A DNA stretch of 64,000 nt from Escherichia coli. Lineage in GTDB: Bacteria; Pseudomonadota; Gammaproteobacteria; Enterobacterales; Enterobacteriaceae. The translations under genes were made by a program, and so were the position numbers. How positions within the stretch are numbered: the first letter of the stretch is position 1; each line of letters starts with the position of its first letter. Under the pieces are notes generated by a model. The model did not search any database and had not been told where the DNA came from. It worked only from the letters and a program-made list of their open reading frames with translations. This document shows, piece after piece, positions 35,428-64,000 of this stretch. Location: the NCBI RefSeq assembly GCF_011045215.1, contig NZ_CP049201.1, one strand, 5' to 3'.

Positions 35428-35515
35428 GGTGAGGTGTCCGAGTGGCTGAAGGAGCACGCCTGGAAAGTGTGTATACGGCAACGTATCGGGGGTTCGAATC
35501 CCCCCCTCACCGCCA
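35428..35515 (+). tRNA. serX: tRNA-Ser (GGA anticodon), serX
   Basis: GGTGAGGTGTCCGAGTGGCTGAAGGAGCACGCCTGGAAAGTGTG...GGTTCGAATCCCCCCCTCACCGCCA. It has a long variable arm, a CT-GGA-AA anticodon loop and an encoded CCA. Confidence 0.95.
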
Positions 35516-46999: not shown

Positions 47000-47872
47000 T
47001 CAGAAGAAAATCCAGTTCCATACCGCACGGGCAACAGAGACCACCGTGTCACGAACAGCGCGCAGGGCCGTACGGACAACAGAGGCAACACAGACGCTCT
47101 CCGCTGTGTCAAATATCCGGTCCACCGCACCGGTAAACTGTTCACGGGCCTGAGAGCGGACAGATTCCGTGCGCAGCTCGTCCTGCAGTCGGGTCATCAG
47201 GGGACTGGCGGCATGGTCGGGAAGCGCTGTCATGAGCGCACTGACCAGCGTATCCAGTTCCCAGCCGGTGCGGGCCGATACGGCCACAACCGGATGTGCG
47301 GGCCGGAACAGACGGAATACCGCCTCCGTTTTTTCGCGAATGTTCCGTGCCTGTGCGGGAGAGGGCTGAATGCCGGCCATATCCCATTCATGGCAGGGCT
47401 CCGTTTTGTCGGCCTGCGTCACCACAAACAGCACCTGCTGATGTCCCCGGTGCAGGATGTGTCGCCAGAAATACTCATCCACAGACAAGGCACGGTCATC
47501 GGCTTTAATCAGCCACAGTACCAGGTCCAGTTCAGGCAGAATGTCACGGTACAGGGCTTCATACTCTGCATCCCTGTCCCGACTCTCGCCCACCCCGGGC
47601 AGGTCAGTAATAACCATGCTGTGACCGTGGCCACTCAGACGGAAGCGCCGCACTTCCCGGGTGCCGGCGTGAACATCACTGACCGGTGTGACCTCTCCCT
47701 GAAACAGGGCATTACAGAGTGAGGATTTACCGGCCCCGCTTTTCCCCATAATGCCAATCACGGGTTCGTGACTGGTGAGTTTGCGCAGATGTTCCAGGAT
47801 GTGACGGGAAAGTGAGTAAGGCAGGGAGGAGAGCGGTTTTTCAATTGCCTCAATGGCATCAGACGGATTCAT
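47000..47872 (-). CDS. YeeP/YkfA/YfjP-family GTPase
   Basis: 290 aa from the internal Met MNPSDAIEAIEK. Walker A GIMGKSGAGKSS, DLPGVGE and TQADK motifs. Confidence 0.85.
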   Translation of the reverse strand: MNPSDAIEAIEKPLSSLPYSLSRHILEHLRKLTSHEPVIGIMGKSGAGKSSLCNALFQGEVTPVSDVHAGTREVRRFRLSGHGHSMVITDLPGVGESRDRDAEYEALYRDILPELDLVLWLIKADDRALSVDEYFWRHILHRGHQQVLFVVTQADKTEPCHEWDMAGIQPSPAQARNIREKTEAVFRLFRPAHPVVAVSARTGWELDTLVSALMTALPDHAASPLMTRLQDELRTESVRSQAREQFTGAVDRIFDTAESVCVASVVRTALRAVRDTVVSVARAVWNWIFF

Positions 47873-48087
47873 ACATGTATTCCCGGTGAAAAAAGACAAA
47901 ACCCCGCGCACCGGAAAAGTGGCGGGGGACTCACGGAGATAATATCTGCCTAAAATTATTTGGAATGCAGGTATATGCAGCTAATTTGTATCGGCTCATT
48001 AGTACAGAACTAAACCTCATCTGACAGTCCGCTCTGTGCCAAGAGCGGACTTTGCAAAATGGGGGTTATTTCAATCAAAACGTAACG

Positions 48088-49032
48088 TCACAACCAGCCG
48101 ACGCTCTCTCGCCATTTATAATTAGTAACTTTATCATTTTCGCTTATTTTTTTAGATATAGAGCGCGGCTCTCTTCCTAGATACTCAGATATTTCTATCG
48201 GGGACAAATCAAAATCGACAAGCATGACTCTAAGTTTTTCCATTTCCTTTAAAGTCCAAGGCTTGCCATAATTTTCATAAAGAGATACCTTATGCTCCCT
48301 GATAGTTCGCTTTCTCTGAGTTTCACTTTCCCTCTGAAAAATCTCGCTTTTAAATTGTGAACGGAACTCTTTACAGAAGTTGTTATCAGTTTTTTTGTTA
48401 TATAGATTGCTAAAAATAAGCTGGGATGCCGGGTCTAAATCAGGTGTGTTAATAATGAAAACTTTGACCTTTTCCATATAGGGATATTCAATTTTACCCA
48501 ATATGCTTAATTGCTTTATATTAAAAAAACCTCTCAAATCAAAAGATTTAATGAGCTTTGATTGGATTACACTTTCAATCCTGCTTGCATTTGAATAACA
48601 GTACTTTGCCATTGGAAGGGCCCATACTACCAGTTGAGGAATATATTTTTCTAATGCAATGCTCTGCCAATCAGTATCAAAGGTTTGGCTTTTTGCTAGC
48701 ATGTTTTTCGGCAAATCAGAATACATTGTGGTAGATGCCCATATCTTATAATCATTCGCCAAGGCTTGATAGTATTTTGTGTGGTTATGAATTTTATAAG
48801 CTGACATGAAGCGATAAACGTCTTCGTCGTGACCAGCGTCGTAAATTGTTCGATTTCCTCTAAGATAACCGTCGTAATGTTCGGTTATCCTTCTACCTAC
48901 ATTACAACTTACCCCAACGTAAACCACACGACTGAAAAGTCCTTTATGGACAATAAGATAAACTCCGCTACAGCCAGATTTCCTGGCCTCTGATAGAGAA
49001 CCTAAAAATCTCCATTCCATAATTAAATCCAT
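48088..49032 (-). CDS. Orphan GIY-YIG-like nuclease domain protein with a C-terminal Myb/SANT-like HTH
   Basis: 314 aa. N-terminal GVYLIVHKGLFSRVVYVGVSCNVGRRITEHY fits GIY-(10)-YxG...R..EH. Later RIESVIQ/FFN are candidate Glu/Asn. C-terminal KPWTLKEMEKLRVMLVDFDLSPIEISEYLGREPRSISKKI. The gene is markedly AT-rich. Confidence 0.7.
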   Translation of the reverse strand: MDLIMEWRFLGSLSEARKSGCSGVYLIVHKGLFSRVVYVGVSCNVGRRITEHYDGYLRGNRTIYDAGHDEDVYRFMSAYKIHNHTKYYQALANDYKIWASTTMYSDLPKNMLAKSQTFDTDWQSIALEKYIPQLVVWALPMAKYCYSNASRIESVIQSKLIKSFDLRGFFNIKQLSILGKIEYPYMEKVKVFIINTPDLDPASQLIFSNLYNKKTDNNFCKEFRSQFKSEIFQRESETQRKRTIREHKVSLYENYGKPWTLKEMEKLRVMLVDFDLSPIEISEYLGREPRSISKKISENDKVTNYKWRESVGWL

Positions 49033-49494: not shown

Positions 49495-49803
49495 TCAAAG
49501 AGCGGCGATGATGCACAGCCCGCACGAGGCAATATTCGCACAAGAATCAGGTTCAGAAATAACCTGATCTGGCATGGTGGGGAGAGTATCACTGAGCAGG
49601 CTTTCGGTAAAATGCGGCGGGATGAGGTCGGCGTGGGTTGCAGCAGTACAATGTCGCCCGCAGAGGGTAAGCCACAGCGCGGGATCCTCGGTTTCTATCA
49701 GGGATTCGACGAAGTGGGCGCAGTTGTCGACCAAGGCGGTGAAATCCATAGTGACATTATAAGGAAACGAACAATAGATCGAGTAAATCGCAGTCAGGGA
49801 CAA
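49495..49803 (-). CDS. Hypothetical protein (doubtful ORF)
   Basis: 102-aa ORF with a TTG start, or 84 aa from MDFTALVDNCAHF. No recognisable SD or family. Confidence 0.25.
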   Translation of the reverse strand: MSLTAIYSIYCSFPYNVTMDFTALVDNCAHFVESLIETEDPALWLTLCGRHCTAATHADLIPPHFTESLLSDTLPTMPDQVISEPDSCANIASCGLCIIAAL

Positions 49804-49981
49804 GGATTGTAGTCATAGAGAAGTCTCCTGTAACGGTTTTCAGGAAGCTAATCCCGACGCCTGATTTTGCAGGCGCGGAAGGAGAAGATACTGCGGCCAT
49901 TAATCCGCCACAAGGCATTTACGTGCATAAATCGCGCAGTCAAATCCGACTCCCACTGTAGTTCTTGAACCTGATACCACA

Positions 49982-49999
49982 TTTAGCTAATTTAGCTAA
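49982..49999. promoter_or_regulatory. Tandem 9-bp repeat, each unit containing the palindrome TTAGCTAA (operator-like)
   Basis: TTTAGCTAA-TTTAGCTAA lies directly upstream of a TATTAT -10-like hexamer (50006-50011) and 26 bp before ATG 50025. Confidence 0.4.
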
Positions 50000-50024
50000 C
50001 TTATCTATTATACCAGTGGTTGCC

Positions 50025-50270
50025 ATGAATATGAATGAAGACGAGATTTATCGCCATATCCGGCAGGCACTTTCCAGTGCGCCTCGTAACCAGTACACCG
50101 TCGAGCTGCACCTGCAAATGATTAAATATGCCGACAAACTGGAACACATTACGGCAAAAGCCTTTTGCGAAGGCACTGGTCTGAACCAGAGCCTCGGTAC
50201 CGAATTCAGCAAAATGCGTAACTTAACCCATCGGTTAAAGGCCGCCGGTCTGAATACCGATCTGCTGTAA
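50025..50270 (+). CDS. Small protein preceding hsdM, possible HTH regulator
   Basis: 81 aa, MNMNEDEIYRHIRQALSSAPRNQYTVELHLQMIKYADKLEHITAKAFCEGTGLNQSLGTEFSKMRNL. The HTH call is a guess from the A-x3-G-like turn. Confidence 0.55.
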   Translation: MNMNEDEIYRHIRQALSSAPRNQYTVELHLQMIKYADKLEHITAKAFCEGTGLNQSLGTEFSKMRNLTHRLKAAGLNTDLL

Positions 50271-50309
50271 CCGACTTACGGCACATTATCGCGCAAAACG
50301 AGATATTTA

Positions 50310-52748
50310 ATGGCTATCAAAAAAACCGAACTCTATTCTTCCCTGTGGGCAAGCTGCGACGAACTGCGTGGCGGGATGGACGCCAGCCAGTACAAAGACT
50401 ATGTACTGACCCTGCTGTTTATGAAGTACGTTTCCGATAAGTATAAAGGCGATCCTTACGGGATGATCGTGATACCCAAAGGAGCCAGCTTTGACGATAT
50501 GGTTGCGCTGAAAAATGACAAAGAGATCGGCGACAAAATCAACAAAATCATCCACAAGCTGGCGGAAGAGAACGGCCTGAAGGGCGTCATCGACGAAGCC
50601 GACTTTAACGACGAAGATAAGCTCGGCAAAGGCAAGGAAATGATTGACCGCCTGAGCAAGCTTGTCGGTATCTTTGAAGGGTTAAATCTCTCCAGCAACC
50701 GGGCCGAAGGCGACGATCTGCTGGGCGATGCCTATGAATATCTGATGCGTCACTTCGCAACCGAATCCGGTAAGAGTAAAGGGCAGTTTTACACTCCAGC
50801 GGAGGTGTCACGTATTCTGGCGAAGGTGATTGGTATTACTCCCGATACTCCGCAAGATGCAACGGTTTATGACCCAACCTGTGGCTCTGGTTCGCTGCTG
50901 TTGAAAGTGAATGATGAAGCCCGGCGCGGACTGTCGATTTTCGGCCAGGAGATGGATAACGCTACCAGTGCGCTGGCGCGGATGAACATGATTCTGCATA
51001 ACAATGCCACCGCGAAAATCTGGCAGGGCAATACGCTGAGCGATCCGCAGTGGAAAGAGGCGAACGGCAAACTGAAAGCCTTCGATTTTGCCGTGGCGAA
51101 CCCGCCTTTTTCCAATAAAAACTGGACCAACGGGCTGACGCCGAAAAAAGATCCGTTTGAACGCTTCGGCTGGGGTATTCCGCCGGAAAAAAACGGCGAT
51201 TATGCTTTTTTGTTGCATATCATTAAAAGCCTGAAAAGTACCGGCAAAGGCGCGGTGATCCTGCCCCACGGCGTACTGTTTCGCGGTAACGCCGAAGCGA
51301 ATATCCGTGAAAATCTAATCAAGCAGGGCTATATCAAAGGCGTTATTGGTTTGCCAGCCAACCTGTTTTACGGCACCGGCATCCCGGCGTGCATCATTGT
51401 GATTGATAAAGAGCACGCCCACAGCCGCAAAGGCATTTTTATGATCGACGCCAGCCGGGGCTTTATCAAAGATGGCAACAAGAACCGCCTGCGTAGCCGA
51501 GATATTCACCGCATTGTGGACGTGTTCAACCATCAGCGAACGGTACCTGGCTACAGCCGGATGGTGCCCTCCAGCGAGATCGCCGGAAATGATTACAACC
51601 TGAATATTCCTCGCTATATCGAGAGCGGCGAGCCGGAAGATTTACACGATCTGACCGCGCACTTACAGGGCGGTATTCCGGCACGCGATGTGGATGCTTT
51701 GCAAGATTACTGGCGGGTATTCCCTGCCCTGCGCAACGTGCTGTTTGCTGACGACCGTCCCGGTTACTGTCGGGCGCAGGTGAACGCGCAACAGGTGAAA
51801 CCGACCATTCTGGCGCATCAGGAGTTTAAGGATTTTGCCACCCGCAGCCTGCTACCGTTTAAAGCGTGGGTGAAAGAGGCAAGTCTGGAAGAGATTCGCA
51901 AAGGTGATAAACCCAAAGCGCTAATCCACGATATCAGCGAAATGCTATTGGCGCAGTACGCCAACAGTGAGTTGCTGAACAAATACAGCGTGTACCAGAT
52001 CCTGATGGATTACTGGACTGATGTCATGCAAGACGATGTGTATGCGATTATGCAGGATGGCTGGCAAGCCGCCGCGCAAATCCGCGAGCTTCAGCCGGTG
52101 AAAGGCAAAGATGGCAAAAACATCTGGAAAGAAACGCACGATTTCGAGTTTACCAAACGGCGCTACAAGGCCGATGTGCTGCCCCGTTCGCTGGTGGAAA
52201 TTCGCTGTTTCCCGGAACTGCTGGATGCGCTGAACCGCGCGCAGGAGCGCAGTGAAGAAGCCAGTCGTCAGCTAGTGGAATTCATCGAGGAGCAGGCAGG
52301 TGAAGAGGATCTGCTGGCCGAGGCGAAGAACGATAAAGATAAGGTGACGCAAAAGCTGGTGAATGCCCGTCTAGCACAGTTAAAGAAAACCACTGCCGGC
52401 CCAGATGAGCTGGCAGTGCTGAACCGCTGCCTGGCGCTAATTAAGGCCGAAGCCAGTGCGAAAAAAGCGCTGAAAGCCGCACAAGAAGCGCTGGATCGGG
52501 CGGTGTTTAAACATTATCCCACGCTGGATGAAGCAGCGATTAAAACGCTGGTAGTGCAGGATAAGTGGCTGGCAACGTTGCAGGCAGGGATCAAGGCGGA
52601 GATTGAGCGTATTACCCAGCAACTGGCGTCGCGCGTAAAGGAGCTGGAAGAGCGTTATGCTGAACCGTTGCTAGCGCTTGAAGCCTCCGTTGAGGCGTTG
52701 AGCGAGAAAGTGGCCGGGCATTTGCGGGCGATGGGGCTGGAGTGGTGA
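50310..52748 (+). CDS. hsdM: Type I R-M DNA methyltransferase subunit HsdM with a long C-terminal coiled-coil extension
   Basis: 812 aa. AdoMet motif DPTCGSGSLLL and catalytic NPPF (AVANPPFSNKNW). The last ~300 aa are E/K/A/L-rich. Confidence 0.92.
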   Translation: MAIKKTELYSSLWASCDELRGGMDASQYKDYVLTLLFMKYVSDKYKGDPYGMIVIPKGASFDDMVALKNDKEIGDKINKIIHKLAEENGLKGVIDEADFNDEDKLGKGKEMIDRLSKLVGIFEGLNLSSNRAEGDDLLGDAYEYLMRHFATESGKSKGQFYTPAEVSRILAKVIGITPDTPQDATVYDPTCGSGSLLLKVNDEARRGLSIFGQEMDNATSALARMNMILHNNATAKIWQGNTLSDPQWKEANGKLKAFDFAVANPPFSNKNWTNGLTPKKDPFERFGWGIPPEKNGDYAFLLHIIKSLKSTGKGAVILPHGVLFRGNAEANIRENLIKQGYIKGVIGLPANLFYGTGIPACIIVIDKEHAHSRKGIFMIDASRGFIKDGNKNRLRSRDIHRIVDVFNHQRTVPGYSRMVPSSEIAGNDYNLNIPRYIESGEPEDLHDLTAHLQGGIPARDVDALQDYWRVFPALRNVLFADDRPGYCRAQVNAQQVKPTILAHQEFKDFATRSLLPFKAWVKEASLEEIRKGDKPKALIHDISEMLLAQYANSELLNKYSVYQILMDYWTDVMQDDVYAIMQDGWQAAAQIRELQPVKGKDGKNIWKETHDFEFTKRRYKADVLPRSLVEIRCFPELLDALNRAQERSEEASRQLVEFIEEQAGEEDLLAEAKNDKDKVTQKLVNARLAQLKKTTAGPDELAVLNRCLALIKAEASAKKALKAAQEALDRAVFKHYPTLDEAAIKTLVVQDKWLATLQAGIKAEIERITQQLASRVKELEERYAEPLLALEASVEALSEKVAGHLRAMGLEW

Positions 52749-54088
52749 TGGTGGATTTAATGGTGAATGAGCAACGGTCGAGTACGGCGGGGAAAGATGT
52801 GCCTGCGGGGTATAAACTGACTGAGGTGGGCGTGATTCCTGAGGATTGGGATTGCGTACCATTTGGTAATCTGTTTAAAACAAACACAAAGAAAAAAAAA
52901 GTCAGCGATTATGAGCTAGTTTCATTTATTGGGATGCAGGATGTTAGTGAAGATGCACAATTAAAAAATAATACTCAACTTCCTTTTAAAGAAGTTAAAA
53001 GTGGTTTTACTTACTTTGAAAAAGGGGATGTTTTATTAGCTAAAATAACCCCTTGTTTTGAAAATGGAAAAGGATGTCATACCGCTGATTTACCTACTAA
53101 TGTAGGTTTTGGGAGTACGGAATTTCATGTATTAAGGGAAAATGAAGACTCCGATTCTCGCTTCATCTATTTTTGGACAACTGATAAAAAATTCAGAGCA
53201 TCACTGGAATCTGAAATGGTGGGAAGTGCGGGACACCGTCGTGTGCCGCTAGTTGCTATAGAAAAATATTTGATTCCATGTCCCCCAAATTTGCAAGAGC
53301 AAAGTGCTATTGCTGATTCATTATCTGATATTAATAATTTTATTCTAGCTCTAGAAAAGCTTATCGTTAAAAAACAAGCCATTAAAACCGCTACTATGCA
53401 GCAACTACTGACGGGTAAAACCCGTTTGCCACAGTTTGCGTTACGCAAAGATGGCTCTGCTAAGGGATATAAAAAGAGCGAGTTGGGGGCGATTCCTGAA
53501 GATTGGGTAGTCACAAGCATTGGACAATTTACTGACTGCTGTGCTGGTGGAACTCCGAGTACTAAAATTTCAGCATATTGGGGAGGAACTCATCCTTGGA
53601 TGAGTTCCGGCGAATTACACTTAAAACAAGTGTATGCTGTAGCCGATTATATAACCGACGAAGGGCTTGTTAACTCCAGTACAAAGTATGTGCCTAAAAA
53701 TTCTGTATTAGTCGGATTGGCAGGACAAGGAAAGACTCGAGGGACTGTAGCAATTAATCGCATTGAATTATGTACTAATCAGTCTATTGCTGCGATTTTC
53801 CCCAGCAAACATCATTCCACAGAATTCCTGTTCTATAACCTCGACAGTCGTTATGAGGAACTGAGAAGTTTATCTACTGGTGATGGGGGGCGTGGTGGGT
53901 TGAATCTTACTATTATCAGGAAATTACATCTTGCATTTCCGCCAAAAGAAGAACAAGCCGCCATCGCCGCCATCCTCTCCGATATGGACAAGGAAATCCA
54001 GATCCTGCAACAGCGTCTGGACAAAACCCGCCAGCTTAAGCAAGGGATGATGCAGGAACTGTTAACCGGGAAAATCCGCTTAATATAG
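52748..54088 (+). CDS. hsdS: Type I R-M specificity subunit HsdS
   Basis: Two TRDs, each opened by ..IPEDW..., and two conserved helices ending QQLLTGKTRLP / QELLTGKIRL. ATG 52748 overlaps the hsdM TGA. An in-frame GTG at 52742 is an alternative start. Confidence 0.92.
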   Translation: MVDLMVNEQRSSTAGKDVPAGYKLTEVGVIPEDWDCVPFGNLFKTNTKKKKVSDYELVSFIGMQDVSEDAQLKNNTQLPFKEVKSGFTYFEKGDVLLAKITPCFENGKGCHTADLPTNVGFGSTEFHVLRENEDSDSRFIYFWTTDKKFRASLESEMVGSAGHRRVPLVAIEKYLIPCPPNLQEQSAIADSLSDINNFILALEKLIVKKQAIKTATMQQLLTGKTRLPQFALRKDGSAKGYKKSELGAIPEDWVVTSIGQFTDCCAGGTPSTKISAYWGGTHPWMSSGELHLKQVYAVADYITDEGLVNSSTKYVPKNSVLVGLAGQGKTRGTVAINRIELCTNQSIAAIFPSKHHSTEFLFYNLDSRYEELRSLSTGDGGRGGLNLTIIRKLHLAFPPKEEQAAIAAILSDMDKEIQILQQRLDKTRQLKQGMMQELLTGKIRLI

Positions 54089-54100
54089 AAGGGAAAGCAC

Positions 54101-54757
54101 ATGGCTTATGATTACAGCGCCAGCCTCAACCCGCAAAAAGCTCTGATCTGGCGTATCGTCCATCGGGACAATATCCCGTGGATTCTGGATAACGGGCTGC
54201 ACTGCGGCAACAGTCTGGTGCAGGCGGAAAACTGGATCAATATCGGCAACCCGGAGCTGATCGGCAAGCGTGCCGGGCATCCGGTACCTGTCGGAACGGG
54301 CGGGACACTGCATGACTATGTGCCGTTTTATTTTACCCCCTTCTCGCCAATGCTGATGAACATCCACAGCGGGCGCGGCGGCATTAAGCAACGCCCCAAT
54401 GAGGAGATCGTTATTCTGGTCAGCAACTTGCGGAACGTGGCAGCACACGACGTGCCCTTCGTGTTTACCGACAGCCATGCTTACTATAACTGGACCAACT
54501 ACTACACCAGTCTGAATAGTCTGGACCAGATCGACTGGCCCATTTTGCAGGCACGGGACTTTCGCCGCGATCCAGACGATCCGGCTAAATTTGAACGCTA
54601 TCAGGCAGAGGCGCTAATCTGGCAACACTGCCCGATCTCTCTGCTGGATGGGATAATTTGTTACAGCGAAGAGGTCAGGTTACAATTAGAGCAATGGCTG
54701 TTTCAGCGTAATCTAACAATGTCCGTTCACACACGGGCTGGATGGTACTTCTCATGA
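54101..54757 (+). CDS. darT: DarT-like (DUF4433) DNA ADP-ribosyltransferase toxin
   Basis: 218 aa. Motifs [29 protein letters not shown] and YQAEALIW, ending AGWYFS. These closely parallel DarT as I remember it. Confidence 0.85.
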
Positions 54758-55821
54758 TCACATATACACAAGGCAATTTACTGGACGCACCGGTGGAAGC
54801 TCTGGTGAATACGGTTAATACCGTCGGTGTCATGGGGAAAGGCATCGCGTTGATGTTTAAAGAGCGCTTCCCCGAAAATATGAAAGTCTATGCCCTCGCT
54901 TGCAAACAAAAGCAGGTGATCACCGGCAAAATGTTCATTACCGAAACCGGGGAACTGATGGGACCGCGCTGGATTGTTAATTTTCCGACCAAACAGCACT
55001 GGCGCGCTGATTCCCGCATGGAGTGGATTGAAGATGGCTTGCAGGACTTACGCCGCTTTTTGATTGAAGAGAACGTGCAGTCCATCGCCATTCCACCACT
55101 GGGCGCAGGCAACGGTGGTTTGAACTGGCCGGACGTTCGGGCGCAGATTGAATCTGCCCTTGGCGACCTTCAGGACGTTGATATCCTGATTTACCAACCG
55201 ACTGAAAAATACCAGAACGTTGCCAAAAGCACTGGCGTAAAAAAGCTCACTCCCGCCAGAGCCGCCATCGCTGAACTGGTGCGTCGCTACTGGGTATTGG
55301 GGATGGAGTGCAGCCTACTGGAAATCCAGAAACTGGCCTGGCTGTTACAACGCGCCATTGAGCAGCATCAACAGGACGATATCCTCAAACTGCGGTTTGA
55401 AGCTCACTATTATGGCCCCTATGCGCCCAATCTGAACCATCTGCTTAATGCGCTGGACGGCACCTATCTAAAAGCCGAGAAACGCATCCCGGACAGCCAA
55501 CCGCTGGATGTGATCTGGTTTAACGATCAAAAAAAAGAACACGTTAATGCGTATCTGAACAACGAAGCCAGAGAGTGGCTACCTGCGCTGGAGCAGGTCA
55601 GCCAGTTAATTGACGGCTTTGAATCGCCGTTTGGTCTGGAGTTGCTGGCAACCGTAGACTGGTTGCTGAGCCGTGGCGAATGTCAACCAACGCTGGATTC
55701 CGTTAAGGAAGGACTGCACCAGTGGCCTGCGGGCGAACGCTGGGCCAGCCGTAAGTTGAGGCTGTTTGATAATAATAATCTGCAATTTGCCATTAACCGC
55801 GTAATGGAGTTCCATTGCTGA
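54754..55821 (+). CDS. darG: DarG-like macrodomain antitoxin (ADP-ribosyl-DNA glycohydrolase)
   Basis: 355 aa from [40 protein letters not shown] (macrodomain) plus a C-terminal domain. Its ATG overlaps the darT stop as ATGA. Confidence 0.85.
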
Positions 55822-55839
55822 GGGTTTAAGGAGCGCCTT

Positions 55840-58800
55840 TTGAGTACCGTGGGCCAGCGCGAACGCGCCACACAGCAGCGTCTGATTCAGTTTTTTGTTG
55901 AAGATTTAGGATACCGCCATCTGAGTCACCGCACCGGGTACACCGGGAACAGCAACATCGACACTAATATACTGAGCGCGTGGCTAAAACGGCGCGGCGT
56001 TAATGATACGTTGATCACCCGGGCGTTGCGGCAACTGGATTCCGCCGCCGCCCTGGGCGAAGGCAAAAAACTCTATTACGCCAATAAAGAGGTCTATCGC
56101 CTGCTGCGTTACGGCGTGAAAGACAAAGAAGGTGCAGGCGAGCAGAACCAAACCGTGTGGCTGATTGACTGGGCCAACCCACAAGCCAATGATTTCGCCA
56201 TCGCCGATGAGGTGACGGTCAAAGGCGAGTACTGCAAGCGCCCGGATCTGGTGCTGTACGTTAACGGCATTGCGCTGGGCGTGATTGAACTTAAGCGTTC
56301 GTCAGTGCACGTCAGCGAAGGTATCCGGCAGAATCTCGATAATCAAAAGAAAACCTTTATCCGCGATTTCTTCACCACTATGCAGTTAGTGATGGCAGGC
56401 AACGATACGCAGGGCCTGCGCTACGGCACCATCGAAACCCCGGAAAAATACTATCTGGAGTGGAAAGAAGATAATCCAGGCGACTATACACATAAACTCG
56501 ACTTTCATTTAAGTCGTCTGTGTAGCAAATCCAGGCTGTTGGATATCGTCCATAATTACATTGTCTTTGATGTCGGGGTGAAAAAACTCTGCCGCCATAA
56601 TCAGTTCTTCGGCGTCGAGGCGGCTAAGCAACATATTGCCCGTCGTGAAGGCGGTATTATCTGGCACACACAGGGATCGGGTAAAAGCCTGACGATGGTC
56701 TGGCTGGCGAAGTGGATCCGTGAAAATGTGCCAAACTCCCGCGTGTTGATTGTGACTGACCGCACCGAACTGGATGAACAGATCGAAAGCGTGTTTATGG
56801 GCGTGAATGAAGATATTTATCGCACCTCCAGCGGCAACGATCTTATCGCAACGCTCAATCATCCTAACCCGTGGCTTATTTGCTCGCTGGTGCATAAATT
56901 TGGTTGTCGCAGCGAAGCTGAAGACAATGCGGCTACCGACGCCTTTATCACCGAATTACAGCAGTCCCTGACGAAAACATTCCGCGCCAAAGGCGATCTG
57001 TTTGTTTTTGTGGACGAGTGCCACCGCACACAATCCGGCAAGCTGCATAACGCCATGACTGCCATTCTGCCGGACGCCCTGTTTATCGGTTTTACCGGCA
57101 CACCGCTGATGAAGAAAGATAAGAAGAAGTCGGTTGAGGTGTTCGGCCCTTATATCCATACCTATAAATTTGATGAAGCGGTGGCCGACGGTGTGGTGCT
57201 GGATCTGCGCTACGAGGCGCGCGATATTGACCAGTATCTGACATCAGAGAAAAAGGTCGATGACTGGTTTGAAGCCAAGACTCGCGGTTTGTCGAATTTA
57301 GCCAGGACCCAGCTTAAGCAAAAGTGGGGATCAATGCAGAAGCTGCTCTCCAGCAAGTCGCGGCTGGAGCAGATCGTTAACGACATTTTGCTGGATATGG
57401 ATACCCGTCCACGCCTGATGGACGGGCGCGGCAACGCCATGCTGGTATGCAGCAGTATCTATCAAGCCTGCAAGGTTTACGAGATGTTCAGCCAGACCGA
57501 GCTGGCAGGAAAAGTAGCGATTGTGACCAGCTATCGCCCCGATGCCGCCAGCATCAAAGGCGAAGAAACGGGCGAAGGGTTAACGGAGAAACTCTCTAAA
57601 CACGCCACCTATCGTAAAATGTTGGCTGACTATTTTGAACAAAGTGAAGAGAAGGCCGCCGCACGCATTACCGAGTTCGAGCGGGAAGTGAAACAACGTT
57701 TTATTGAAGAGCCGGGGCAAATGCGCCTGCTTATCGTGGTGGACAAGCTGTTGACTGGCTTTGACGCGCCGTCCGCCACCTATCTCTACATTGATAAAAC
57801 CATGACCGACCATACGCTGTTTCAGGCGATTTGTCGGGTGAACCGGCTGGACGGTGAGGATAAAGAGTATGGCTATATTATCGATTATAAAGATCTGTTC
57901 CGTTCGCTGGATAAAGCGATTACCGATTACACCACGGGCGCGTTTGATGATTACGATCGGGACGATGTGGCCGGGTTGCTGAAAGACAGGCTGGAGCAGG
58001 CGCAACTGGATCTCGACAGCGCGCTGGAGATGGTTCGCAGCTTATGTGAGCCCGTCAAAACCCCGCGCAGCCTGCAGGACTATCAGCACTATTTTTGCGG
58101 TAAATCAGGAGAGAATCAGACTTCGTTAAACGAAAAAGAGGCGCTGCGCCTGACATTTTACCAGTGCGTCGCCCGTCTGCTACGCGCTTATGCCAGCATC
58201 GCCAATGAAATGCCGGAAGCAGGCTACACTGCCGAAGAGGTAGAGAGCATTCGCGCCGAAGTCGCTGAATTCGAAAAACTGCGCTATGAGATTAAGCTGA
58301 CCAGCGGCGATCTTCTGGATATGAAGCGCTTTGAACCCGCTATGCGTCATTTACTGGATATGTATGTTCGCGCCGATGGTAGCGAAGTGCTGATGGATTT
58401 TGAAGAGTTAAGTCTGATTGAACTGATTGTCGAGAAAGGCTTGGCGGCGACCGTCGCCCTGCCGGATGATATCCGTAATAATCAGGATGCGATGGCGGAA
58501 ACCATCGAAAACAACGTGCGCAAAACCATCGTGGATGAAAACCCGGTTAACCCAAAATACTATGGACGCATGTCGCAGCTGCTGGATGAACTGATTACCC
58601 TTCGCCGACAAAATGCGCTCAATTATCAGCAGTATCTGGAACGTATCCGCGATTTGTGTAAACAGGTCATCCGCCCGGAGCAAACCGCCGGAGCGTGCTA
58701 CCCTGCCACCATGGATACACAAGCAAAGCGCGCCTTCTATGACAACTTCGGCCACGACGAGGTACTGGCGACCCGCATAGATACGACAATTCGCTATACC

Positions 58801-58935
58801 AAAAGGGCAGAGTGGATTGGCGATCGTTTTAAAGAACGGGAAATTGCCAACGCATTACGTGAAGAGACCGCCAGCTATAATATTGATATTGATGAGGTGA
58901 TAGCGCTTGCCCGTCAGCAGAAGGAATATCACTGA
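55840..58935 (+). CDS. hsdR: Type I R-M restriction/translocase subunit HsdR
   Basis: 1031 aa. PD-(D/E)xK nuclease RPDLVLYVNGIALGVIELK, helicase motif I HTQGSGKSLTM and motif II FVDECHRTQ. TTG start preceded by AAGGAG. Confidence 0.93.
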   Translation: MSTVGQRERATQQRLIQFFVEDLGYRHLSHRTGYTGNSNIDTNILSAWLKRRGVNDTLITRALRQLDSAAALGEGKKLYYANKEVYRLLRYGVKDKEGAGEQNQTVWLIDWANPQANDFAIADEVTVKGEYCKRPDLVLYVNGIALGVIELKRSSVHVSEGIRQNLDNQKKTFIRDFFTTMQLVMAGNDTQGLRYGTIETPEKYYLEWKEDNPGDYTHKLDFHLSRLCSKSRLLDIVHNYIVFDVGVKKLCRHNQFFGVEAAKQHIARREGGIIWHTQGSGKSLTMVWLAKWIRENVPNSRVLIVTDRTELDEQIESVFMGVNEDIYRTSSGNDLIATLNHPNPWLICSLVHKFGCRSEAEDNAATDAFITELQQSLTKTFRAKGDLFVFVDECHRTQSGKLHNAMTAILPDALFIGFTGTPLMKKDKKKSVEVFGPYIHTYKFDEAVADGVVLDLRYEARDIDQYLTSEKKVDDWFEAKTRGLSNLARTQLKQKWGSMQKLLSSKSRLEQIVNDILLDMDTRPRLMDGRGNAMLVCSSIYQACKVYEMFSQTELAGKVAIVTSYRPDAASIKGEETGEGLTEKLSKHATYRKMLADYFEQSEEKAAARITEFEREVKQRFIEEPGQMRLLIVVDKLLTGFDAPSATYLYIDKTMTDHTLFQAICRVNRLDGEDKEYGYIIDYKDLFRSLDKAITDYTTGAFDDYDRDDVAGLLKDRLEQAQLDLDSALEMVRSLCEPVKTPRSLQDYQHYFCGKSGENQTSLNEKEALRLTFYQCVARLLRAYASIANEMPEAGYTAEEVESIRAEVAEFEKLRYEIKLTSGDLLDMKRFEPAMRHLLDMYVRADGSEVLMDFEELSLIELIVEKGLAATVALPDDIRNNQDAMAETIENNVRKTIVDENPVNPKYYGRMSQLLDELITLRRQNALNYQQYLERIRDLCKQVIRPEQTAGACYPATMDTQAKRAFYDNFGHDEVLATRIDTTIRYTKRAEWIGDRFKEREIANALREETASYNIDIDEVIALARQQKEYH

Positions 58936-59651
58936 TGCCAATCATGCAAATAGGCTCGTTACACTTGCTGGTCAACCGTAAGGCGATTAAGAATCTGCAT
59001 ATCAGCGTGCTGCCGCCTGATGGCAAAGTCCGCGTTTCAGCGCCGGAACATATGACGGAGACGGCGATTCGTATGGCGGTTGCTTCACGCTTTCGCTGGA
59101 TCAGAAAACAGCAGCAGGATTTCGCCAGACAGCCTCGTCAATCAGAGAGGGAAATGGTCAGCGGAGAGTGCCACTATCTTTGGGGCCGAAGATATCGCCT
59201 ACTTGTGATTGAGCGTCACGGGCGTCACGAAGTAAAAGTTGCGGGAAATAATAAGCTCCAGCTTTATGTTCAACCGGGAACCCGTGATGAAAATAAGGCA
59301 TTGGCGTTAAGTGAATTTTATCGACATGAACTAAAACAGCAGGTGGCTAAGCTTCTACCTGAATGGCAAGACCGAATCGGTGTTCCCCTAACATTCTGGG
59401 GCATCAAAAAGATGAAAACCTTTTGGGGCACCTGTAACACTACAACAAAACGAATCTGGCTCAATCTGGAGCTAATTAAGAAGCCGCCGGAGTGTCTGGA
59501 GTATATTCTGGTGCATGAACTGGTTCATCTTCTGGAACGTCACCATAATGCTCGCTTCCGGTTGCATATGGATCGGTTTATTCCTGACTGGCGTGAGCGT
59601 CGGGATTTGTTAAATAATATGCCGTTAGCGTTTGAGGCATGGGAGTATTGA
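58935..59651 (+). CDS. M48/DUF45 (YgjP-like) zinc metallopeptidase
   Basis: 238 aa with HEXXH in ILVHELVHLLERHHN. Its ATG overlaps the hsdR TGA (TGATG). Confidence 0.85.
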   Translation: MPIMQIGSLHLLVNRKAIKNLHISVLPPDGKVRVSAPEHMTETAIRMAVASRFRWIRKQQQDFARQPRQSEREMVSGECHYLWGRRYRLLVIERHGRHEVKVAGNNKLQLYVQPGTRDENKALALSEFYRHELKQQVAKLLPEWQDRIGVPLTFWGIKKMKTFWGTCNTTTKRIWLNLELIKKPPECLEYILVHELVHLLERHHNARFRLHMDRFIPDWRERRDLLNNMPLAFEAWEY

Positions 59652-60184
59652 TTGAGCCTGTAACTGTTTTTTGTCCATAAATTAACCTTCATTTGATGCT
59701 GGATAGAACATATCAAAATCAGACAATTACACAAATCTATGTACAGGCTCAACTCCTGCCATGGAACGTAGTACTCACCAATAAGTAAGCATCAATACGG
59801 CGCTCCGTTAACGCTTACTAGCATGGTTATCTCCTTAAAAAATTGAGGCGACAACTATGCTGACACAGGGGGTTACTCACCGATCTCCTTCACGGTAATA
59901 CGCAGTTCTTCAGAACCCGCCTCCGATACCAGCCTGGCGGTCGCCCCGGCGCAAGCAAAATAAATCGACCATTGTCAGACTGCGATCGTTCGGATGCCCC
60001 GCCACCGACGCATCAGTATGAGTTAACCGAAACGATACAAAATTGCCTGAGAATCATTACGCTGGCTGATGGAAGGCACACCAAAAGCCTCTGCACAGAA
60101 CGATGTTCGGCAACAACAGAAACATGATTGCGTTCATGGCAATAGTCATTCGTACCGTTACAGGCGGTATTGATTTATTACAGA

Positions 60185-60210
60185 CAAGCGGTACATATAT
60201 GTACCGCTTG
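60185..60210. repeat. Perfect 26-bp palindrome
   Basis: CAAGCGGTACATA|TATGTACCGCTTG, 50 bp downstream of the minus-strand OMP gene stop. No clear T-run on either strand. Confidence 0.6.
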
Positions 60211-60258
60211 GTTAAGTAAAAAAACAGATATGAACGCTATTATGTTCATTCTACTTTA

Positions 60259-60816
60259 TTAAAAGCGATAACCCACGCCAATATTGAATCCATTAATGGA
60301 ATAATTATCGCCAAGTTTTGCTCTGGTTCCTTCATATCCGGCATTAATTGTAATATTACTTGTCGGATTGATCATTACCCCGGCAGCATAAGCAAAAGAT
60401 GTGGATTTTTTCGAAATATTTTCTCTGGCGAAATAACCATCAACGTTTGTCCATGCTGTTTTACCATCAGCTTTAACATGCGCCACGCCGCCAGCCGCAT
60501 ACAGTGACATATAATCGTTAATGCGCCATACGGGGCCGGTCAGTAAGGAATAATATTTTGCATCAACCTGGTTTTTAATTGAATCGCCATATGAATGATA
60601 TTCCTGATTACCATCCCCTTTCATCCAGGAGAAACTGCCCATAATACTGACCGGGGAGTCCCATTCATACCTGTACTGCAGGTTTACCCCTCTAATATTC
60701 TTGAAGTTCTGAATTTTACTCTGTGCATAACCGACAGAAAACGAATGGTTGTCAGCCAGCACGGAACCGCTTGCCACTGATAATATGATGGCTGAAAGAA
60801 CTGACAGTTTTTTCAT
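60259..60816 (-). CDS. Ail/Lom/OmpX/PagC-family 8-stranded outer membrane protein
   Basis: 185 aa, signal peptide MKKLSVLSAIILSVASGSVLA, SVGYAQSK start and ...GFNIGVGYRF C-terminal beta-signal. Confidence 0.85.
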   Translation of the reverse strand: MKKLSVLSAIILSVASGSVLADNHSFSVGYAQSKIQNFKNIRGVNLQYRYEWDSPVSIMGSFSWMKGDGNQEYHSYGDSIKNQVDAKYYSLLTGPVWRINDYMSLYAAGGVAHVKADGKTAWTNVDGYFARENISKKSTSFAYAAGVMINPTSNITINAGYEGTRAKLGDNYSINGFNIGVGYRF

Positions 60817-61081
60817 TTTATTATCTCCATTGTTAATGAGAGTTATTTGATGAAATAATGATGCTAATATTTCTATCTGATGTCAATCACTCTGAGGGTG
60901 GTTGATACGTCAGAGGAACAACAGCTACATTAATATGCTATTTCAACCGGTTATCAGCATTAATTACAGCATACTTGTTCTGAATATCTCCGCATTCACG
61001 ATCAGCTTTACGACAGACAGTCATTTCTCTGTCAAAAGCATGTACCTCGTCGTAGCTGAGGTAGTTATTCTCAACAACATT

Positions 61082-61315
61082 TCAGAACCCCTTAACTTTC
61101 ATGATATGCAACAAACCAATACCCAAGCCTAAGATCCCCCCCCCATACACACTCATTTTTAACAGTCTAGAAAACTGAAAAACTTCAAATGATATTGGGG
61201 CATTCAAATAAAAATACATAAATATCTTCAGAAGAAGATAAAAAATCGAACCGACTATAAACAAACCAAATATGCATACAGTCATTAATAAGACAACAAT
61301 AAGAAGGTTCTTCAT
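61082..61315 (-). CDS. Small polytopic membrane protein, candidate CdiI-type immunity protein
   Basis: 77 aa, almost entirely hydrophobic (2-3 TM helices). Its ATG overlaps the stop of the upstream toxin fragment as ATGA. Confidence 0.65.
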
Positions 61316-62343
61316 TTCCCAGCCTCCATTGCATCTTTCTTTTTCTGGATAATGGAGCTTCCAAACTCAGATGATAAACTACCACCCGCATTACCCACAG
61401 CACCAGGGATCTTACTCGGTACCATTTCTTTAGATAGACCTAACTGCCCTTTAACTTCAGTATATTTTAGTAGAGTCGGATCGAATTTAGGATTCCAGCC
61501 ACCGGTTATCCATTTACCGATTGTATTTGCAGCAGGCTTGACCACATAATTGCCAACCCCATATCCAAACCCGGCCCCCGCTCCATTTGTAATCGCCCCA
61601 GTAAGAGGATCATCTCCGTTTATGGCGTTGGTTAATGCTCCACCTGCCGCATTCCAGGCTATTGTCCCTTTCCAGCCCTGCCCCATGGTGATTACATTGA
61701 CCCATCCTGCAATGATTGCATTTTCAGGATCAACTGAACTATCTACCATGTAACCAATTCCTGCATTTGCACCTGTGCCAAGAGCCCACATGGCCTGAGC
61801 ACCGCCAGGTAAGAGAGCTACACTACCAGTGGCCAACGCTCCGGCATACGCTTTATTGACTGCTTCTCCTCGCTTACAGGCTTCACCGCCTGGGGCATCG
61901 TTACAGGAAAGTACATCTGCGCCATGCGTCTGAGCAGCTTTGCTCTGCTCGGACTCTGTGCCACCAACCAAGTTATTCTCAGCAATGTTCTTCCCAACAC
62001 CAGCCCCTGCAGCCGCGCCAGCCACATCGCCACTGGCAATGCCGCCAGCCATACCCGCTGACAGCGTTGCCAGCGTGCTTATCGTCTGCTTCTGCTCTTC
62101 ACTGAGGTCTGACTGTTTCACGCCCGGATACAGCATTCCGATCGCTCTGGCTGCCAGCTCTCCCGTTGCTGCGCCTGCTGCACCAGCAGCAACATTATTA
62201 CTCTGCATTGCCGCTACTGCACCGCCCAGAATGGCGTGAGCAATGGCCTTTACTGCCGGGTCTTTTTCTGTTGATTTCAGCAGGTATGCCAGTTCCGGAG
62301 CCGAAGCTCCCGCCAGTACTGCACCAACGTCACCACCTGCCAG
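61312..62343 (-). pseudogene. cdiA: Orphan cdiA-CT module: start-less 3' fragment of a CdiA/haemagglutinin-type exoprotein (pretoxin region plus Gly-rich toxin tip)
   Basis: The frame is open from the in-frame TAG at 62344-62346, with no plausible start. It reads ...[79 protein letters not shown]...GKNIAENNL. That is the CdiA pretoxin region ending in a VENN-type (AENN) motif, followed by a ~215-aa glycine-rich C-terminal domain. Confidence 0.75.
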
Positions 62344-63048
62344 CTATGGCTGGAGATGGTGGATGTTACCGATAATCAAGAAGCCTTAGATATAAGGCAA
62401 TGTTTTATCTTTCTTTCATACGAAAACCAGTGCTGCCATACTAGCCCTTTTCCTGTGACATCTAAGCGAGCTCATGTTTATCGGGAAGGGTGTTAGATCA
62501 TTGTTAATCATACACAGGTAATTATGCAGCGGTTATGCATAACTTCATTTCGAGCGTGTGATAACGCCAACACAATCACCAGAATTATAAAATAAAATCA
62601 CAAAACCTGAGAACATGTCACATTTTATCACATTAATAATTTTTCTTTATGATTTCATAACTATTTACAGCCTTTTATTAAGCCAAAAAAAGTTAAATTG
62701 CAATTATTGCATAATTATTCGCGCTACAGTTTTTTTACTTTTAAAATCATATAATATATAATCACCTTAAAACAGCAAACTCCACAAAATAATAACAAAT
62801 AGAAATATTTCCACCCAAATAATGATTATCTATTCATGAGCTGACATTATGAAATTAATCATTATTTGATGCAAATAACACAAATTAAAACAAACACCTT
62901 AATATCCATTCTTGTGTGAATCTCATCACAATAATGTTTATTTTACCGCCTAGTATGAACCACGAAATCAATTGAACTTAGCCGCCATGAAATTAAATAC
63001 ACAACATGGCGCATACCTTTTTATTCTGAAAAAATTAAAGGAATAATT

Positions 63049-64000
63049 ATGGAAAAGCATTACGTCGGTTCTGAAATTGGTCAATTGCGTAGTGTTATGC
63101 TGCACCGCCCAAATTTAAGTCTGAAACGTTTGACACCATCGAATTGTCAGGAACTGCTTTTCGATGATGTACTCTCGGTTGAACGGGCAGGTGAAGAGCA
63201 TGACATCTTCGCAAATACGCTGCGCGATCAGGGGGTGGAAGTCCTGCTGTTAACAGACCTCCTGACACAAACCCTTGATATTAAAGAAGCGAAAACCTGG
63301 CTACTGGAGACGCAAATTTCTGACTACCGCCTCGGACCTACCTTTGCGGGCGATGTGCGCAGCTGGCTGGCGGACATGCCGCACCGTGAACTGGCGCGAA
63401 GATTAAGCGGCGGATTAACTTACGGTGAAATTCCGGCTGCCATTAACAATATGGTGGTGGATACCCACACGTCTAATGACTTTATTATGAAGCCGCTACC
63501 GAATCATTTATTTACCCGCGATACCTCCTGCTGGATTTATAACGGTGTTTCTATTAACCCGATGGCCAAACCAGCCCGTCAACGTGAAACCAATAACCTC
63601 CGGGCAATATATCGCTGGCACCCGGCATTTGCCGACGGCGATTTTATTAAGTATTTCGGCGACGAAAATATTTATTACGACCACGCCACTTTGGAAGGTG
63701 GCGACGTATTAGTGATTGGTCGTGGGGCGGTATTGATCGGCATGTCTGAACGCACAACACCGCAGGGCGTGGAGTTCCTCGCCAACAGCCTGTTCAAACA
63801 TCGTCAGGCCGAGCGAGTGATCGCCGTTGAGCTGCCAAAACACCGCTCCTGTATGCACCTTGACACCGTCATGACCCACATCGACGTTGACACTTTCTCC
63901 GTTTACCCGGAAGTGGTGCGCAAAGACGCCCAGTGCTGGACGCTCACTTCGAACGGACGCGATGGCCTACAACGGACCCAGGAAACCGACCTGTTGCACG
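63049..64000 (+). CDS. arcA: Arginine deiminase, N-terminal ~317 aa (runs off window end)
   Basis: ATG 63049 after [47 protein letters not shown]...[10 protein letters not shown]...[10 protein letters not shown]...CMHLDTV are ADI family motifs. Absent from the ORF track because there is no stop. Confidence 0.9.

Follow-up and report, generated by a model that had tools for sequence, protein, structure and literature searches.

An intact DarTG2 toxin–antitoxin module between hsdS and hsdR of Escherichia coli, very probably part of an allele of the RRDM anti-phage island

Introduction

In enteropathogenic Escherichia coli (EPEC), the toxin DarT ADP-ribosylates single-stranded DNA (ssDNA) at TTT/TCT, stalls replication, raises RecA levels and induces the SOS response; its partner, DarG, removes ADP-ribose from ssDNA, and rescue is achieved by the macrodomain of DarG alone or by its C-terminal domain alone, the latter also binding DarT (PMC7003065). 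The E170A variant of the toxin (pBAD33_darT E170A) was built and assayed beside the wild type in the same study, and this substitution is named as inactivating in PMC13368585, where EPEC DarT2 is the enzyme of CRISPR-guided 'append editing'. Structures of the Thermus proteins place the ADP-ribose on N3 of thymine, and both R51 and E160 of that toxin are required (PMC9967889, PMC11543638). That DarTG can sit within type I restriction operons was already noted in 2016 (PMC5179494); a study of 2025, which describes the RRDM island of EPEC E2348/69, dissected this arrangement (PMC12255303). When cloned with its own promoter, that island reduces plating 10^3- to 10^7-fold for several phages, and phage infection raises hsdM more than 15-fold (PMC12255303). 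A single upstream promoter is repressed by RptR dimers, which act via TAGCTA palindromes overlapping the −10 box, two such sites being sufficient (PMC12255303). Here, we compare with these systems a darTG locus in a stretch of 64,000 nucleotides from E. coli contig NZ_CP049201.1 (assembly GCF_011045215.1), hereafter the window, to which all coordinates refer.

We conclude that this locus is almost certainly an intact DarTG2 toxin–antitoxin module, placed between hsdS and hsdR, and that it belongs to an allelic form of the RRDM anti-phage island of EPEC E2348/69, which comprises seven genes.

Results

The toxin, DarT

The initial annotation, made from the sequence of the window, had taken a 218-amino-acid (aa) protein to be a DarT/DUF4433 toxin and the protein that follows it to be a macrodomain antidote, and profile hidden Markov model searches against the DarT and Macro families bear this out for both. 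The 218-aa protein matches two models over the full length and above the cut-offs, namely Pfam PF14487 (E = 2.3e-53; 181.4 bits, cut-off 22.5; profile positions 1–201 of 201) and the NCBIfam equivalog toxin_DarT (NF048013; 262.9 bits, cut-off 150; positions 1–204 of 204); it also matches the PADLOC DarT model (E = 2.2e-74). Among solved structures, its homologues include the DarT of Thermus (7omv; E = 2.9e-26) and the DarT chain from Mycobacterium tuberculosis (7yk3_A; E = 9.9e-15).

The sequence blocks on which the initial annotation relied are all present: a 19-residue block at 67–85, a 10-residue block at 118–127 and YQAEALIW at 167–174 in the toxin, together with both of the macrodomain blocks quoted for DarG. 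The glutamate within YQAEALIW, put forward as the candidate catalytic residue, is Glu170, the residue replaced in EPEC E170A. The GWYF motif, which the initial annotation had placed at the end of the protein, lies at 214–217 and is not quite terminal, the protein ending in GWYFS. Using the list of catalytic residues given for Thermus DarT in PMC9967889, the 7omv alignment pairs R51, H65, Y71, M78, H119 and E160 of the Thermus protein with R57, H71, Y77, M84, H126 and E170 of the window protein, all six being conserved (the 7omv crystal chain itself bears E160A, and it is this alanine that pairs with E170). Moreover, the experimentally studied residues of EPEC DarT, namely G49, R57, M84, M86, R92, R166, E170 and R193, are all kept, and no published catalytic or DNA-binding residue is missing.

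Overall, the window toxin is 99.1% identical to EPEC DarT (216/218 residues), the differences being Q97R and A213S (window residue given first, here and below); neither of these falls on a known functional residue. Because the activity was demonstrated for a protein of such high identity (PMC7003065), the window DarT would also be expected to ADP-ribosylate thymidine in ssDNA in an NAD+-dependent manner, and to be toxic. The gene arrangement is that of the DarT2 subclass (PMC11543638): directly downstream lies a macrodomain antitoxin gene, whose first 4 nt overlap the end of darT.

The antitoxin, DarG

The downstream protein opens with a macrodomain, as the initial annotation had stated (Pfam Macro, E = 2.8e-21; T. 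aquaticus DarG, 5m31, E = 3.3e-55, in an alignment without gaps). As a whole, it matches the NCBIfam equivalog antitoxin_DarG (NF048014; 451.1 bits, cut-off 250; positions 1–337 of 338) and the PADLOC DarG model (E = 1.5e-127). Its Pfam matches comprise only Macro and a weak SocA/Panacea hit that lies below its own cut-off; the NADAR family is not among them. N22, K29, K80, H82, W83 and G119, the residues tested in T. aquaticus DarG (PMC5179494), are all kept in the ungapped alignment to 5m31; they include the catalytic lysine (K80) and the substrate-binding residues (N22, K29 and G119) of a TARG1-like macrodomain.

Two start codons come into question for darG. The mechanically defined open reading frame (ORF) opens at 54742 (359 aa, MVLLMITY...), with an in-frame ATG that lies 12 nt upstream of the accepted start at 54754 (355 aa, MITYTQG...). 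The shorter form is the one that RefSeq annotates in near-identical loci and for the characterized EPEC protein, whereas the longer is found in at least one deposited O127:H6 annotation. We prefer the start at 54754 because it gives an ATGA overlap with the darT stop codon and because it makes the residue numbering equal to that of Thermus DarG. The residue called 'K54' in the EPEC paper would be K80 if it had been counted from Met27, the start of a gene model of ~330 aa.

In the 355-aa numbering, the macrodomain spans residues ~1–152 and the C-terminal DarT-binding domain residues ~183–351. A homologue of the latter region is chain 7yk3_B from M. tuberculosis ('DNA ADP-ribosyl glycohydrolase'; match over residues 187–355 of the 359-aa form, E = 5.5e-13), and the same Protein Data Bank (PDB) entry contains the DarT chain 7yk3_A. 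The C-terminal portion measures ~200 aa rather than the ~190 aa of the initial annotation, and the toxin binding that the latter had suggested for it has been demonstrated for an identical protein: the window DarG is 100% identical to EPEC DarG, the database entry carrying the UniProt name DARG_ECO27. By analogy, the C-terminal domain of the window DarG would bind DarT. The wet-lab experiments that the initial annotation had called for (expression of the toxin, rescue by the antitoxin and mutation of the glutamate) have already been published for the EPEC pair, to which the window proteins are 99.1 and 100% identical, respectively (PMC7003065).

A seven-gene operon of the RRDM type

The identification of the pair as a toxin–antitoxin system was sound, but the initial annotation left unmentioned that it is embedded in a type I restriction-modification operon of the RRDM kind. 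Seven genes lie on one strand in the order rptR-hsdM-hsdS-darT-darG-hsdR-M48, which matches that in EPEC (NC_011601), with darTG between hsdS and hsdR. The position inside this operon is the biologically important context, and it leads to the RRDM defence island (PMC12255303). The features are as follows:

49966–50008, + strand: putative RRDM promoter/operator, read from the sequence and aligned with that of EPEC, for which function has been demonstrated (PMC12255303)
50031–50270, + strand: rptR, predicted 79-aa helix-turn-helix-like repressor of the island promoter (Pfam HTH_73, E = 1.7e-28; same position in the RefSeq annotation)
50310–52748, + strand: hsdM, type I methyltransferase subunit, 812 aa (Pfam N6_Mtase, E = 6.7e-104, and HsdM_N; NCBIfam TIGR00497, 282.8 bits against a cut-off of 242.75)
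52748–54088, + strand: hsdS, specificity subunit, 446 aa (Pfam Methylase_S, E = 7.9e-36)
54101–54757, + strand: darT (DarT2 class), predicted ssDNA thymidine ADP-ribosyltransferase toxin, 218 aa (Pfam, PADLOC, NCBIfam, PDB)
54754–55821, + strand: darG, antitoxin, 355 aa, with a macrodomain that is a predicted DNA ADP-ribosyl glycohydrolase and a C-terminal domain predicted to bind DarT (Pfam, PADLOC, NCBIfam, PDB)
55840–58935, + strand: hsdR, type I restriction endonuclease/translocase subunit of 1031 aa from a TTG start (Pfam HSDR_N, SWI2_SNF2 and T1R_D3-like; NCBIfam TIGR00348, 546.4 bits against a cut-off of 284.55)
58935–59651, + strand: gene for an M48/YgjP-like zinc metallopeptidase of 238 aa, with which the island ends (Pfam YgjP-like, E = 1.4e-61; SprT-like, E = 1.8e-06)

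All seven genes are intact, and they are tightly packed, with overlaps of 1–4 nt and gaps of 12–39 nt. The darT stop and darG start share four nucleotides (ATGA); the hsdS ATG at 52748 shares one nucleotide with the hsdM stop, the junction reading TGATG, and a single nucleotide is likewise common to the hsdR stop and the start of the M48 gene. A GAAGGGAAAG stretch lies upstream of darT, and the ribosome-binding site AAGGAG precedes the TTG start of hsdR. A consensus scan of 49600–60300 for promoters and terminators gave no excess of sites over shuffled sequence and is uninformative on internal promoters or terminators; as terminator-like sites are no commoner than in shuffled sequence, there is no sign of an internal terminator.

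Promoter and operator

The island promoter has its −35 box, TTGAAC, at 49966–49971. Two TTTAGCTAA direct repeats follow, at 49982–49990 and 49991–49999, and overlap the −10 box AGCTAATTT; each of them holds the RptR site TAGCTA (49984–49989 and 49993–49998), so that at least two RptR palindromes overlap the −10 box, as expected for an RRDM island. The next 9-bp unit, CTTATCTAT, holds the variant TATCTA at 50002–50007, in 9-bp phase with the TAGCTA sites, and TATCTA is one of the four RptR site variants that the RRDM authors deemed competent (PMC12255303). A pattern search for the operator returned four matches in the window against 0.45 expected.

A third perfect TTTAGCTAA repeat, as seen in EPEC, was not found at the window promoter, which has two only. 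The two-repeat operator also occurs in strains EC5654 and MLI114, such that three of the four loci compared differ from the EPEC reference. It is an allelic difference and gives no ground to exclude the locus from the RRDM group, since two sites are enough for repression. RptR itself is 96.2% identical to its EPEC counterpart (B7UP23/WP_000343040.1), with N2D, N52S and H67R.

Restriction subunits and terminal peptidase

HsdM is 97.8% identical to EPEC HsdM (18 substitutions), HsdR 99.6% identical (V242A, C356R, R382C and T821A), and the M48 peptidase 100% identical to WP_001122107.1 of EPEC. In contrast, HsdS is only 67% identical overall. The divergence is limited to residues ~35–200, corresponding to the N-terminal target-recognition domain, which differs among the window, EPEC and EC5654, whereas all three agree completely in their central and C-terminal portions. 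As judged from these alignments, the replaced domain is the usual type I specificity-subunit domain shuffling; one half of the restriction/methylation target is therefore predicted to differ from that of EPEC. The exact HsdS sequence, with its start at the ATG (52748) and not at the GTG (52742) where the mechanical ORF begins, occurs on just 20 recorded contigs; for each of DarT, DarG and the M48 peptidase, the number is about 1000.

Frequency and genomic surroundings

The initial annotation had regarded a DNA-modifying enzyme of this kind as unusual cargo for an E. coli island, a view that does not hold: the system has a name, and of 5426 complete E. coli genomes, 248 (~4.6%) contain the 1721-bp darTG stretch at ≥95% identity, always annotated darT/darG by RefSeq. 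The wider region, 35400–60000, is present over at least 80% of its length in 193 complete E. coli genomes. The best identities are 96.7% for 35400–60000 (megablast) and 99.8% for the darTG stretch, with none identical among the best records listed. DarTG/RRDM is thus a minority accessory element, but not a rare one.

A tRNA-Ser(GGA) gene at 35428–35515, next to ghrA, marks the boundary of the island, and a CP4-44-like module lies between it and rptR; in related strains, numerous pseudogenes and insertion sequence (IS) fragments are found in the island around it. In the close relative MLI114, ghrA is found just before the tRNA-Ser, with ymdB annotated ~8 kb away on the ghrA side, and the stretch from the tRNA to rptR encodes a CbtA/YeeU toxin–antitoxin pair, an antirestriction protein, an Ag43 autotransporter and a GTPase, and is CP4-44-like. 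In the window, the GTPase ORF occupies 47000–47911 (− strand). Just upstream of the RRDM island, there is a 314-aa ORF (48088–49032, − strand) within a stretch of low GC content (~37%); related genomes list its product as a hypothetical protein, and no Pfam match was found for it.

Downstream of the island lie an ORF for an Ail/Lom-family outer-membrane protein (60259–60816, − strand) and an orphan VENN pre-toxin ORF, CdiA-CT-like (61312–62208, − strand). The latter is adjoined by a 77-aa ORF (61082–61315), a candidate for its immunity gene. Among the complete E. coli genomes listed with the best scores, matches in this part of the window cover only 62042–64000, and not 59600–62040.

Discussion

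The identity of the genes, the conservation of functional residues, the operon architecture and the operator sites all agree with assignment of the locus to DarTG2/RRDM, and the sequence of the locus holds nothing that contradicts it. The enzymatic activities, toxicity, regulation and phage defence that go with the assignment would follow from what has been published for the near-identical proteins of EPEC, and it is here that some points call for caution. The activity of the Q97/A213 allele of DarT is carried over from the EPEC allele, and hence is presumed by analogy. That a single transcript spans all seven genes is suggested by their spacing. Furthermore, RRDM protection was measured for the whole island, with DarTG2 and restriction acting together (PMC12255303).

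This last point bears on the alternative that has most to commend it, namely, that the module is mainly an addiction cassette, which stabilizes the type I restriction operon and the island in the chromosome and is not an anti-phage effector. Jankevicius et al. (PMC5179494) suggested that DarTG inside type I restriction operons might have such a role, the island lies in a mobile, IS-rich region linked to tRNA-Ser, and the published protection is that of DarTG2 and restriction combined. Nevertheless, DarTG systems of both classes protect E. coli from phages when expressed alone, according to the introduction of PMC12255303 and a Vibrio cholerae study, and the whole island, which protects 10^3- to 10^7-fold, is induced by infection. 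We therefore regard addiction as the main role as rather unlikely; addiction and defence are, in any case, compatible and not mutually exclusive.

A decayed, non-functional darTG remnant might be suspected from the many pseudogenes and IS fragments that surround the island in related strains. Both ORFs are, however, of full length with all functional residues in place, their exact sequences recur on about 1000 contigs and the other operon genes are likewise intact; this contradicts a pseudogene, and we consider decay very improbable.

Two further readings concern the nature of the antitoxin, and we give neither any real credence. According to the first, the macrodomain protein would be a YmdB-like O-acetyl-ADP-ribose deacetylase and RNase III regulator, to which the upstream DUF4433 protein is unrelated. 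It derives from nomenclature, some records of the identical protein being named 'O-acetyl-ADP-ribose deacetylase (regulator of RNase III)' or 'Appr-1-p processing protein', and PDB entry 5m3i being labelled 'RNase III inhibitor'. It is refuted by the profile scores, as the NCBIfam ADP-ribose-binding protein model reaches a mere 30.5 bits against a cut-off of 246, far from the result for antitoxin_DarG, and by the complete identity to the characterized EPEC DarG, which de-ADP-ribosylates ssDNA; moreover, the real ymdB is annotated elsewhere in MLI114, on the ghrA side of the tRNA-Ser. The second, a DarTG1-type system that ADP-ribosylates guanosine, draws on the membership of DarT1 and DarT2 in one Pfam family, but is refuted by the domain content of the antitoxin (Macro and weak SocA_Panacea only, where DarT1 is partnered by a single-domain NADAR protein) and runs counter to the 99.1% identity of the toxin to the thymidine-modifying EPEC DarT2.

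With the locus taken as a DarTG2 module within an RRDM-type island, its mode of action can be proposed by extension from the published systems. Using NAD+, DarT would add ADP-ribose to N3 of the second thymidine in TTT/TCT (5'-TYTN-3') motifs of ssDNA, and this modification would block DNA polymerases and stall replication. DarG would counteract the toxin in two ways: its macrodomain, with Lys80 as the catalytic residue, would hydrolyse the thymidine–ADP-ribose bond, while its C-terminal domain would bind and sequester DarT. All seven genes would be expressed from the one promoter upstream of rptR, repressed by RptR dimers bound to the TAGCTA palindromes, and phage infection would lead to de-repression of the operon. 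Should the protection by DarG fail, DarT would modify both phage and host ssDNA and the infection would be aborted; meanwhile, the restriction enzyme would cut unmethylated phage DNA.

More speculatively, the terminal M48/YgjP-like peptidase might act as a switch. Once the restriction complex has been blocked, or the cell subverted, it would cleave either RptR or DarG and so release DarT as a second line of defence when restriction fails; the operator with two repeats and the exchanged HsdS domain would then be natural tuning variants. We consider this idea improbable.

In practical terms, the two genes can be annotated as darT/darG (DarTG2) in a type I restriction island of the RRDM type, and activities determined for the EPEC proteins may be transferred to the window proteins with high confidence, by analogy. 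Because EPEC DarT2 serves in append editing, natural alleles of DarT, such as that with Q97 and A213, are of some practical interest.

Comparison with known systems

The darTG system is already known and named, has been characterized both structurally and biochemically, and is routinely annotated; the window locus can therefore be placed with respect to several described relatives. One of these is DarTG1 (E. coli C7 DarT1 with NADAR; PMC11543638), which shares with the window pair a toxin of the same ADP-ribosyltransferase family, an ssDNA target and the character of a phage-defence toxin–antitoxin system. DarT1 modifies guanine, however, and its modification is reversed by a single-domain NADAR protein (PMC11543638), whereas the window antitoxin combines a macrodomain with a toxin-binding domain. 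The DarTG system of M. tuberculosis (7yk3; PMC12170906) is homologous in both DarT and DarG's C-terminal domain, albeit at much lower similarity, and the abstract of PMC12170906 describes it as a regulator of stationary-phase growth and transcription rather than as a component of a restriction operon.

The DarTG systems of T. aquaticus and Thermus sp. 2.9 (7omv–7on0, 5m31; PMC5179494) have in common with the window pair the fold family and catalytic set of DarT, and K80, N22, K29 and G119 of the DarG macrodomain. Thermus DarT is nonetheless distant, with 34% identity between the toxin of Thermus sp. 2.9 and EPEC DarT2 (PMC13368585), and it prefers TNTC, whereas EPEC-type DarT favours TTT/TCT; additionally, its H13 and T15 are replaced by R18 and V20 in the window DarT.

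The closest relative is the RRDM island of EPEC E2348/69 O127:H6 (NC_011601, 1150268–1159908; PMC7003065, PMC12255303), which has the same genes in the same order, the same −35 box and 5' −10 box, the same TAGCTA repeats and the same ATGA overlap. The EPEC operator consists of three perfect TTTAGCTAA repeats followed by TATCCA, where the window has two and the phased TATCTA; EPEC DarT has R97 and S213 in place of Q97 and A213, and the N-terminal recognition domain of EPEC HsdS differs from that of the window. The EPEC island is flanked by IS100, IS3 and IS66, whereas the window locus belongs to a tRNA-Ser island with a CP4-44-like module. These local differences from EPEC are minor.

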